This document shows positions 16,237 through 18,264 of a stretch of DNA of 64,000 nucleotides, piece after piece; the first letter of the stretch is position 1, and every line of letters begins with the position of its first letter. The translations under genes were made by a program, and so were the position numbers. Location of the stretch: NCBI GenBank assembly GCA_965207735.1, contig OZ242296.1, forward strand, positions 2,016,001 through 2,080,000, written 5' to 3'. Under the pieces are notes generated by a model, which worked only from the letters and a program-made list of their open reading frames with translations, made no database searches and was not told the DNA's origin. The DNA comes from Candidatus Versatilivorator sp. Lineage in GTDB: Bacteria > Acidobacteriota > Terriglobia > Versatilivoradales > Versatilivoraceae.

Positions 16237-18264
16237 ATGGGCACGGCTGTGCAATCCCCGATACGCCTCGCCGAAGAGTTGATCCTCCTGATGCTCAATG
16301 AGCAGAGCGGCTATCTGGAGATGGTACCCGGCTGGAGTTTCTCCTGCGTCATGGCCGGCTCCGTCATCGCCGATCTTGCGCTGGAGGATCGAATCGACAG
16401 TGATTTGAACAGGTTGTATCTTGTGGATCCCACTCCAATCGGAGACAAGCTGCTCGACCCCACGCTCAAGGAGATCGCCGAGTCCCGGGAATCGTCGGAC
16501 ACGCAATTCTGGATCGAACGGACCGCGGGCCGTTCCGAAGAAATCGTCACGGCCACACTCGATCGCCTGGTGGAGAGGAAGATCCTCGACTACGAGATGG
16601 GTGGATTCTGGGGCCTCTCGCGCTCCGTTTCACGCTCAGGAACCTATCCGACCTCTGACTTCCACGTCCGCCAGGAAGCTAAATCAAGAGTCCTGAGCGT
16701 CATCTTGAACGACGACATCCCTGACCCGAGCGATGCCATTCTCATTGCCTTGATGCATACCTGCGGCGGTTTCAAGCTGGTGCTTTCACCGGAAGACTAC
16801 GAGGAGAAGCTCGAGCGGATCGAGACGATCGCCAAGCTGGATCTGGTAGGGCGGTCGGTTGCCAGCGCAGTGAGGGACAGCACCGCCCAACCGAAGACCC
16901 GTCGTGTTATCCAGGCCAAACCCATTCCGAAGCTCCGATTCGTCGACATCCTGCGACAGCGTGACCTTCGCTCGGGAAATATCCCGAAGGCGATGAACGG
17001 CATCTTCCGGGAGTATGGGCCGGTCGTCCGGCTTCCCTTCAAGATCCGCAAGTCACCCGTAGTCGCCTTGATGGGGCCGGACACCAATCAGTGGGTCAAC
17101 AAGTACGGGCGGTTCTACCTCCGCTCGAAGGACTACATCCAGGACCTGGAGCGTGCGTTCGGAGCCACCCGCACCATGCCGGGCATGGATGGCGCCGAGC
17201 ACTACAGGATGCGCAAGTCGCTTCAGGGCGCTTATTCCCGCGCCGCGCTGGGGCGGAATCTGCCGGAGTTGATCCACCAGTGCAGACATTCGCTGCGGCG
17301 ATGGAATGAAGGCGAGGTTTTGCGAGCAGGCCCGACCTTCAAGAACCACGTCAGCAGCCAAATCTCTCATCTGGTGATCGGAGTGGATTGCAGCCACTAC
17401 GTCGATGAACTGCTCGAATACGAACATCGCGCGCTGGTGACGCAAGTTCAGGGCGCATTGCCCAAGTTCATGCTGCGCACGCCCAAGATGAAGCGCTATG
17501 GAAAGCGCGTCCGTGAACTCCAGGAGGCGATCATCGCATCCCACACCCCGGCGCAGCGGAGGGGGAAGCCGCCGGATATTGCCGACGCAATCCTCGAACT
17601 CCACAAGAACGACCCCCAGTTCCTGCCGGAAACGGACATTACCTTCCCGTTTGTAGCGGCAATGGTCGCCAGCATCTATCTCGGCAGCGGGCTCGCCTTC
17701 GCAGTCTATTCCATGATTCGACACCCGGACCTGCACGCGAAGATCCAACGAGAAGCCGAGTTGCTCTTCGGCAACGGGCGTGAACCGCAGGCGGAGGACT
17801 TTAGTCACGACAGCATCGACGTCACCGTCCGCCTCTGCATGGAGTCCGCGCGCTTGTACCCGGTGATTCCCTGGCAGTTGAGAACGGTCATGAACGAATG
17901 TATTGTCAGTGGCTATGAAATTCCGGCCAAGACGATGCTATTGATTTGCCAGACGGCAACTCATTACGCCGAGGACCTCTTCAAGGACCCGCTCGCGTTC
18001 GACATAGACCGCTATCTGCCGGATCGGGGAGAACATGCGACCCCGGGCGCCTATGCCCCCTATGGCCTGGGCACGCACACTTGCCTTGGAAGTCGGTGGG
18101 TGGAACTGCAGATGGCCGTCAACATCCTGCTGATCGCGTACCACTTGAAGCTGGAGGTGACGCCCGCAGACTACAAACTTGGATTCAATCCCTTCCCGAC
18201 ATCTTCCCCCAACAAGAAGTTGAAGTTCCGCGTCGCTCAAATCAGGAACCCGATCCTGTCCTGA
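16237..18264 (+). CDS. GPP34/GOLPH3-domain-cytochrome P450 fusion, copy 1
   Basis: N-terminal ~215 aa LAEELILL...AGSVIADLALEDRI...GDKLLD...LVERKIL...DAILIAL is GPP34-family-like. The C-terminal P450 has ESAR (ExxR), FDIDRY and YGLGTHTCLG with the heme Cys. Confidence 0.85.
   Translation: MGTAVQSPIRLAEELILLMLNEQSGYLEMVPGWSFSCVMAGSVIADLALEDRIDSDLNRLYLVDPTPIGDKLLDPTLKEIAESRESSDTQFWIERTAGRSEEIVTATLDRLVERKILDYEMGGFWGLSRSVSRSGTYPTSDFHVRQEAKSRVLSVILNDDIPDPSDAILIALMHTCGGFKLVLSPEDYEEKLERIETIAKLDLVGRSVASAVRDSTAQPKTRRVIQAKPIPKLRFVDILRQRDLRSGNIPKAMNGIFREYGPVVRLPFKIRKSPVVALMGPDTNQWVNKYGRFYLRSKDYIQDLERAFGATRTMPGMDGAEHYRMRKSLQGAYSRAALGRNLPELIHQCRHSLRRWNEGEVLRAGPTFKNHVSSQISHLVIGVDCSHYVDELLEYEHRALVTQVQGALPKFMLRTPKMKRYGKRVRELQEAIIASHTPAQRRGKPPDIADAILELHKNDPQFLPETDITFPFVAAMVASIYLGSGLAFAVYSMIRHPDLHAKIQREAELLFGNGREPQAEDFSHDSIDVTVRLCMESARLYPVIPWQLRTVMNECIVSGYEIPAKTMLLICQTATHYAEDLFKDPLAFDIDRYLPDRGEHATPGAYAPYGLGTHTCLGSRWVELQMAVNILLIAYHLKLEVTPADYKLGFNPFPTSSPNKKLKFRVAQIRNPILS

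Follow-up and report, generated by a model that had tools for sequence, protein, structure and literature searches.

A GPP34-cytochrome P450 fusion of Candidatus Versatilivorator that lacks the PI4P-binding arginines of GOLPH3 and may edit a sterol-like lipid

What is the role of a bacterial protein in which a domain of the GPP34/GOLPH3 family is joined to a cytochrome P450? The question is raised by a gene of Candidatus Versatilivorator sp. (Acidobacteriota) that is present twice in a stretch of 64,000 nucleotides (contig OZ242296.1 of assembly GCA_965207735.1, positions 2,016,001 to 2,080,000 of the forward strand), which we refer to as the window, and whose own numbering is used below. The architecture itself is already published and is not new: Ferreira et al. 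(2025) have reported that proteins with GPP34 and P450 domains, named GPP34_L, make up 656 of the 663 multi-domain GPP34 proteins and are found in sponge symbionts only, and have proposed that GPP34_L is a secreted effector that binds phosphatidylinositol 4-phosphate (PI4P) (PMC11706023).

Here, by comparing the fusion with its homologues, with solved structures and with the gene neighbourhoods of related loci, we arrive tentatively, i.e. with somewhat less than even confidence, at another reading: the fusion would be a membrane-docked, non-canonical P450 that edits an acquired sterol-like lipid. In the freely accessible literature we have found no characterised fusion of GPP34 with P450, no cassette of this kind and no P450 with a deletion in the I-helix; a division of the family into canonical and I-helix-deleted fusions, each group with neighbours of its own, has likewise not been found in print, nor have the missing PI4P site and the origin of the duplicate by recombination.

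The fusion protein and its GPP34 domain

Each copy of the fusion is a single frame of 675 residues; that of copy 1 is free of stops and matches, in the same frame, the GPP34 family PF05719 at residues 11-213 (E 4.7e-32, 112 bits against a cut-off of 29.1, 199 of the 201 profile positions) and the p450 family PF00067 at residues 241-646 (E 4.5e-34, 118.5 bits against a cut-off of 22.8). Copy 2 has similar Pfam scores, and is identical to copy 1 at 636 of the 675 residues (94%) and at 93.7% of the nucleotides; the two copies account for both GPP34 matches of the whole genome. The N-terminal domain of copy 1 on its own matches the structures of human GOLPH3 and yeast Vps74 (3KN1, 2ZIH) in the Protein Data Bank (PDB) at E 6e-6 and, as a profile, at E 2.5e-11. 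The original prediction of a seamless 675-residue frame occurring twice, with a full GPP34-like domain at its N-terminus and with the two genes of a resistance-nodulation-division (RND) pump on its two sides, is thus borne out, the pump genes flanking copy 1 (Table 1); its further statement that no such fusion has been characterised holds for biochemical studies, none of which has been found, but not for the architecture.

An assembly artefact has been considered and rejected: both domains are present in all 120 homologues listed (the best 120 of 576 matches, from 8000 candidates scored), and short-read contigs of run X1 match, with zero differences, the four unique junctions that border the two copies; X1 is possibly the source sample of the window, so that this agreement is not independent. 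Four comparisons gave equal conservation of the GPP34 and the P450 domain (72-85%). In the AlphaFold model of the full-length copy 1 (pLDDT 89.6, pTM 0.85) both domains are confidently folded; since neither of the two full-length models (pTM 0.82 and 0.85) comes with an error map, a rigid docking of GPP34 on the P450 is not claimed, and a complex prediction from the GPP34 domain, the P450 domain and heme, with a score of 0.00, is uninformative either way. Foldseek and wide fold searches were filled by P450s, GOLPH3 not being among the matches listed. Among the ten relatives that were looked up, the one stand-alone relative with a name is a Herpetosiphon P450 with 29% identity.

Variants of the gene occur among relatives: one protein of 872 residues (P0162) has two GPP34 stretches preceding the P450, and decaying copies with an internal deletion or frameshifts (L056:7559-9427, L010:15364-17279 and L042) are a sign of frequent turnover of fusion genes. 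Two labelled runs in which the window occurs, wholly or in part, come from sponge metagenomes. The RNA run X20 holds a 0.12 share of the stretch, in short contigs of related alleles, which is no demonstration of expression, and a scan for promoters and terminators has returned chance-level counts (6 versus 4.1; 12 versus 11.0).

The PI4P site of GOLPH3, as defined by paired mutants, consists of W81, R90, R171 and R174 (PMC2806290). In the profile alignment the three arginines correspond to A40, E101 and V104 of the fusion, and none of 99 close homologues has arginine at any of the three: alanine stands at position 40 in 98 of them, aspartate or glutamate at position 101 in 98, and valine or isoleucine at position 104 in all 99. 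The arginine of R90 is kept in none of 43 distant fusion representatives either; that of R174 is kept in 21 of the 35 fusions with a canonical P450, and in none of the eight representatives of the clade with an altered I-helix, to which the window fusion belongs. Other members of the family may thus bind an anion. W81 aligns with V30 beside a one-residue gap, close to W33, which is invariant in the 99 homologues. Judged by its residues, a GOLPH3-type PI4P site would not operate in this fusion.

A second membrane-binding element of GOLPH3 is a hydrophobic hairpin that inserts into membranes (PMC13408441); its residues F194, L195 and F197 align with F124, W125 and L127 of the fusion, conserved in 99, 97 and 97 of the 99 homologues, respectively. 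The eight most hydrophobic windows of 19 residues all lie within the I-helix of the P450, and the hydrophobicity windows have given no transmembrane segment outside it; a basic linker and a conserved proline precede the P450 domain. As read from the sequence rather than by a predictor, the GPP34 fold begins at residue 11, which leaves no room for a signal peptide. The earlier suggestion that the GPP34 domain replaces a transmembrane anchor by binding the membrane remains plausible on account of the missing transmembrane segment, the hairpin hydrophobics, the basic linker and the proline, but not by way of a GOLPH3-type PI4P site.

The P450 domain and its altered I-helix

The P450 domain retains the heme ligand Cys616 and the E536xxR539 motif, all invariant in the 99 homologues and in 85 aligned rows, and many of its pocket residues are invariant as well. 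The I-helix is different: where relatives have A-G-x-D-T, the fusion has A-S-I-Y-L, with a deletion of one residue and Tyr481 in place of the acid-alcohol pair, so that the P450, which had been predicted to be intact, is so at its heme-binding elements but not at this site. In P450s this pair supplies the protons with which O2 is activated, and several active P450s do without the catalytic threonine. Tyr481 is present in 99 of 99 homologues and, when counted from the C-terminal anchor, occupies the position of the catalytic threonine.

Across 112 aligned rows of the family, an acid with threonine or serine occurs in 86, a gap in 11, threonine alone in eight and another arrangement in seven. 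The spacing between two conserved prolines is 34 residues in all nine gapped rows that could be scored and 35 in all 41 others; the rows having been grouped by the gap column, this spacing shows only that no nearby insertion compensates. On this alignment the one-residue deletion is real, and the altered motif is present in 42 of 43 related loci. In a FastTree phylogeny of 109 of the 112 rows, built with the motif columns excluded and with three seemingly frameshifted or rearranged rows dropped, the nine gapped rows form one clade (SH-like support 100), nested in a clade of fusions (99) that lies among stand-alone bacterial P450s. A single fusion event, followed by the change in the active site, is likely from this tree; a single fusion origin is also reported for GPP34_L (PMC11706023), and is seen here from the side of the P450.

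The closest solved P450 differs with the method: CYP51 is the best PDB match by sequence (E 2e-23), BM3 and the oleate-bound CYP184A1 stand at the top of the Foldseek list, and CYP46A1, CYP184A1, CYP51 and CYP120A1 are tied in the wide fold search (Z 37.4-36.5, root-mean-square deviation ~3, 416-436 residues aligned), so that the substrate is not readable from homology. With CYP51, CYP46A1, CYP184A1, CYP120A1 and the Herpetosiphon P450s the domain shares a common fold of P450s for large lipids, at less than 30% identity; the CYP51 alignment keeps threonine or serine at the catalytic site, whereas the I-helix-deleted clade does not. Membership in CYP51 itself has been rejected, given 16-18% identity in structural alignments and Tyr-Leu at the His-Thr positions.

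The gene cassette, its relatives and the origin of the two copies

The original prediction had not noticed, apart from the altered active site, that the neighbours of the fusion include a Rieske oxygenase and a homologue of sterol methyltransferases (SMT) (Table 1). The Rieske enzyme scores far below the cut-off for SdmA, and the SMT homologue also matches CMAS.

Table 1. Features of the fusion gene and of its cassette in the window.
Feature	Position	Strand	Remarks
GPP34-P450 fusion copy 1	16237..18264	+	675 aa, Pfam
GPP34/GOLPH3-like domain	16267..16875	+	residues 11-213; profile and structure-sequence matches
Cytochrome P450 domain	16957..18174	+	residues 241-646; heme Cys616, E536xxR539
Altered I-helix, residues 478-482	17668..17682	+	one-residue deletion, Tyr481 replacing acid-alcohol (D/E-T) pair
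Rieske oxygenase, KshA_C domain	13708..14784	+	best solved match 3-ketosteroid 9-alpha-hydroxylase, E 1e-22
RND periplasmic adaptor (MFP)	14828..16045	+	TIGR01730 above cut-off
RND permease (AcrB family)	18665..21844	+	paralogue type pairing with methyltransferase; in likely inserted 7.4-kb unit
SMT homologue, Sterol_MT_C	22064..23134	-	E 2.5e-14
MFP 3'-end remnant ahead of copy 2	23394..23556	+	83% identical to 15955-16118
GPP34-P450 fusion copy 2	23613..25640	+	94% aa identity, reciprocal mosaic with copy 1
ispH paralogue	25945..26931	+	profile matches
Squalene-synthase-like gene	27076..28152	+	near fusion in 6/43 loci
MMPL transporter, LolA-like protein, weak DUF1302 match	28274..32687	-	near fusion in 4/43 loci
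Decayed second RND permease, internal deletions	34155..35990	-	Pfam
Outer-membrane efflux channel (NodT/TolC type)	36059..37525	-	profile matches
Second squalene-synthase-like gene	37869..38930	-	61% identical to first

The neighbours of the fusion were compared in 43 related loci from GTDB genomes of Acidobacteriota, Rhodothermales/Bacteroidetes, Latescibacterota and Aminicenantes, relatives being titled as Terriglobia, Bryobacterales and Rhodothermales metagenome-assembled genomes (MAGs): an RND permease is found in 37 of them, a KshA-like Rieske gene in 34, MFP in 29, an outer channel in 26, an SMT homologue in 16, a flavoprotein in 15 and a squalene-synthase-like gene in six. When only the 28 loci of at least 20 kb are counted, the Rieske gene is present in 26, RND in 25 and the SMT homologue in 10, always together with one of two RND paralogue types that stand beside the same fusion, namely the type more than 80% identical to the permease of the window (11 loci) and not the type ~65% identical to it. 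The presence of GPP34 is patchy among kin (eight of 13 genomes of the same genus, and two weak matches in 27 others).

Fusions with a canonical I-helix have other neighbours, so that the family is split into two groups. At eight loci of the canonical type (the motif has been read for seven) there are no Rieske and no SMT matches, and RND is represented by distant genes (26-28% identity) at two loci, as their sole such neighbour, and by a short fragment at one. An Acyl_transf_3 gene adjoins the fusion at four of these loci, one of which also has a glycosyltransferase beside it; a fifth has the same layout by arrangement, not by domain scan, and at one a sulfotransferase adjoins the fusion. Two further copies of the deletion type adjoin Rieske, flavoprotein or SMT genes. 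At L048, L051, L053, L055 and L052 the canonical GPP34-P450 gene is immediately followed by a membrane acyltransferase (Acyl_transf_3) or a sulfotransferase, an order that suggests candidate pairs for hydroxylation and subsequent conjugation. The proposal that the GPP34 domain targets the flanking pump is weakened by these neighbours, and by the rarity of the order adaptor-fusion-permease, which occurs in two of the 43 loci and not in the nearest relatives (L001, L002 and L007); a pump gene, MFP or permease, is nonetheless the nearest cassette neighbour of the fusion in 33 of the 43.

The duplicate is a recombinational mosaic. The nearest relative (L001) has one fusion copy, between MFP and ispH, which at informative sites resembles copy 1 over nucleotides 1-450 (40 versus 4) and copy 2 over nucleotides 601-2028 (64 versus 7), and the DNA of the permease and SMT homologue that intervene in the window is 92% identical to L004, a Bryobacterales locus. 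Such a pattern makes it likely that a 7,376-bp permease-SMT unit was inserted by one crossover within the fusion gene; the alternative, loss from an ancestor with two copies, is opposed by the single-copy layout of L002 and L007 as well. In a contig from a separate sponge-metagenome run of 2016 the 5' part resembles copy 2 and the 3' part copy 1; this contig is consistent with a donor-type allele, and may also be a third allele. By this pattern of insertion, the flanking of copy 1 by pump genes on both sides is likely recent here.

Several further observations concern the surroundings of the cassette. A 365-residue open reading frame with a weak YjbQ/UPF0047 match (32858-33955, minus strand) adjoins the MMPL and squalene-synthase genes; it is 92-98% conserved in four related loci, and its Atlas neighbours are hypothetical Acidobacteriota clusters. 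The flavoprotein of the cassette is located elsewhere in the genome (3415020-3416366, 75% identical to that of L024), as is a pair of ispH/squalene-synthase fragments (3323604-3324530), so that parts of the cassette are scattered in the genome. The cassette is flanked by minus-strand genes of fibronectin-III/cadherin repeat proteins (1-11700 and 40017-49453), the two regions being related (1-5217 versus 40627-45464, 91-95% identical); a DDE transposase lies at 49738-51594 (plus strand), and 55926-56503 contains tandem repeats of ~139 bp as well as short repeats, a region that also matches 53789-53850 in inverted orientation.

What the fusion may do

A sterol-like substrate is suggested by the likeness of the Rieske enzyme to steroid 9-alpha-hydroxylases, by the Sterol_MT_C domain of the methyltransferase, and by the resemblance of the P450 to CYP51 and CYP46A1; that it would be acquired rather than made is suggested by the genome, which is 100% complete, has no match to squalene epoxidase (PF08491), and contains a sole cyclase that scores 97 bits against a cut-off of 851 for oxidosqualene cyclases (OSC), also far below the cut-off for squalene-hopene cyclases. 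De novo sterol synthesis by the organism has been rejected on these grounds. Relatives have OSC-like genes at 705-722 bits, and among the 43 carriers of the fusion a strong OSC-like gene is present in four, a weaker cyclase alone in five, and none at 1e-20 in 34, many of the carrier genomes being incomplete. The one OSC region inspected contains SdmA-like, ERG4/24, P450 and SMT genes, as in the sterol clusters of sponge symbionts described by Brown et al. (2023) (PMC10070321). Like the window, those clusters have an SMT homologue beside oxygenases; unlike it, they carry OSC, CYP51 and SdmA/B, none of which is in the window cassette, whose Rieske enzyme is KshA-like; a term search of their supplements, one file excepted, returned no GPP34 or P450 entry. 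Three loci (L060-L062, in G041, G036 and G043) have OSC-like matches in open frames of 1137-1581 residues, in sterol clusters with a more typical SMT, and the same genomes also carry the GPP34-P450 fusion.

According to the reading that we favour, the fusion would stay in the cytoplasm, where the GPP34 hairpin would dock it on the inner membrane without PI4P; its P450 would oxidise or rearrange a sterol-like lipid, supplied by the host or by neighbours that make sterols, by non-canonical chemistry that does without the acid-alcohol pair; the Rieske enzyme and, where present, the methyltransferase would act on the same lipid, in a presumed order of steps, and the product would leave through the adjacent RND pump. 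As the Thr/Asp pair is missing and no ferredoxin or reductase has been seen among the cassette genes of the window, Tyr481 or a hydroxyl or peroxide of the substrate would supply the proton or the oxidant. The tailoring enzymes beside canonical fusions speak for a tailoring role.

A number of points count against this reading. Compared with GOLPH3 and Vps74, the fusion, with its attached enzyme, has lost not only the PI4P arginines but also the 10-residue loop that bears W161, and its hairpin is shorter in the AlphaFold model, with a Gly-Gly turn between strands 117-120 and 124-127; F124 is kept in just four of the 35 canonical fusions, in which the aromatic pair is poorly kept, and the GPP34 domain is net acidic (22 lysines and arginines versus 37 aspartates and glutamates). 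The P450 is only ~16-21% identical to any solved enzyme, and by fold the fatty-acid and retinoid P450s (BM3, CYP184A1, CYP120A1) rank equal or higher. The SMT homologue is optional, as the long loci indicate, and shares 43% identity with an SMT from a complete sterol cluster, from which it differs in two motifs, so that its reaction is uncertain. The 43 loci are interrelated, were found with close-relative patterns and include many incomplete MAGs, and both the substrate and the activity of the fusion are predictions from sequence and gene context.

The alternatives are not fully exclusive of this reading or of one another. The same cytoplasmic tailoring-and-efflux role might be exerted on a non-sterol substrate (a fatty-acyl chain, another terpenoid or a toxic host lipid), in keeping with the lead of BM3 and CYP184A1 in the Foldseek list, with the CMAS match of the methyltransferase, with the core cassette of Rieske gene, fusion and pump that lacks an SMT homologue in 18 of the 28 long loci, and with the ispH and squalene-synthase-like genes that adjoin the fusion in this genus; KshA_C and Sterol_MT_C, however, both indicate steroids, and the best match by sequence is CYP51, so that we consider this rather unlikely. 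It is quite unlikely that the GPP34 domain instead acts as a module for docking to proteins and tethers the P450 to the RND permease or to another membrane partner, in the manner of the acidic groove with which GOLPH3 binds the basic cytosolic tails of its clients (PMC13408441): the acidity of the domain, the proximity of pump genes and the existence of GPP34 fusions with Rieske and ABC-ATPase domains (PMC11706023) fit such a module, but the partners vary, two RND paralogue types accompanying the same fusion, and the canonical-type loci having distant or fragmentary RND genes where they have any.

The loss of the acid-alcohol pair through a real deletion, together with the lack of a visible redox partner in the cassette, would also be compatible with a P450 domain that is no longer a catalyst, and that serves as a heme-thiolate lipid carrier or sensor loading the pump; the invariance of the heme cysteine, the ExxR motif and many pocket residues makes this improbable. 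As for the published effector, which would bind host PI4P and block phagosome maturation, the confinement of GPP34_L to sponge symbionts and its expression in situ (PMC11706023) are in its favour, as are the R174 arginines of canonical fusions and the possibility that W33 replaces W81 across the alignment gap. Against it stand the substituted binding residues of the clade, the metabolic gene context, and the genome, in which VipB (type VI secretion), FHIPEP (type III secretion and flagella) and VirB4 (type IV secretion) have zero matches, in a search with one marker family for each of these systems, type II secretion and Dot/Icm lying outside it; for the window fusion we regard the proposal as highly improbable. 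A bacterial GPP34 protein need not act on a host: SCO4440 of the free-living Streptomyces coelicolor, which unlike the fusion stands alone without a P450, has a cell-envelope phenotype (PMC12402492).

The window fusion shares its architecture, its occurrence in multiple copies and its phyla with GPP34_L, whose authors propose the effector without a test of binding residues, which are compared here. In the parts of that paper covered, the I-helix-deleted clade and the Rieske/RND/SMT cassette are not set apart: the terms "sterol", "efflux", "methyltransferase" and "signal peptide" have 0 occurrences in its main text, and the genes flanking GPP34 were searched for in the main text and the spreadsheet supplement, the figures in PDF being parts that may bear on whether the cassette is unreported (PMC11706023).

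The effector hypothesis, the sole one published for the fusion, thus fails the residue test in the I-helix-deleted clade, and the cassette names candidate substrates and partners, which makes the function of a bacterial GPP34 domain testable with one recombinant protein. The clade itself, at least 70% conserved across phyla, is a candidate for unusual chemistry. A bolder and decidedly unlikely extension would be a horizontally traded P450 clade that has given up the universal acid-alcohol pair for its deletion and its tyrosine, works independently of redox partners and, for example, rearranges sterol peroxides or desaturates sterols prepared by the Rieske enzyme, so that bacteria incapable of sterol synthesis would make some oxidised or side-chain-modified "sponge" sterols; GPP34 would be a PI4P-independent module that docks lipid enzymes on membranes, and this would be what the GOLPH3 fold originally did in bacteria. 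If it is true that symbionts edit the sterols of their host, this would bear on the question of who makes the unusual sponge sterols that are used as biomarkers.

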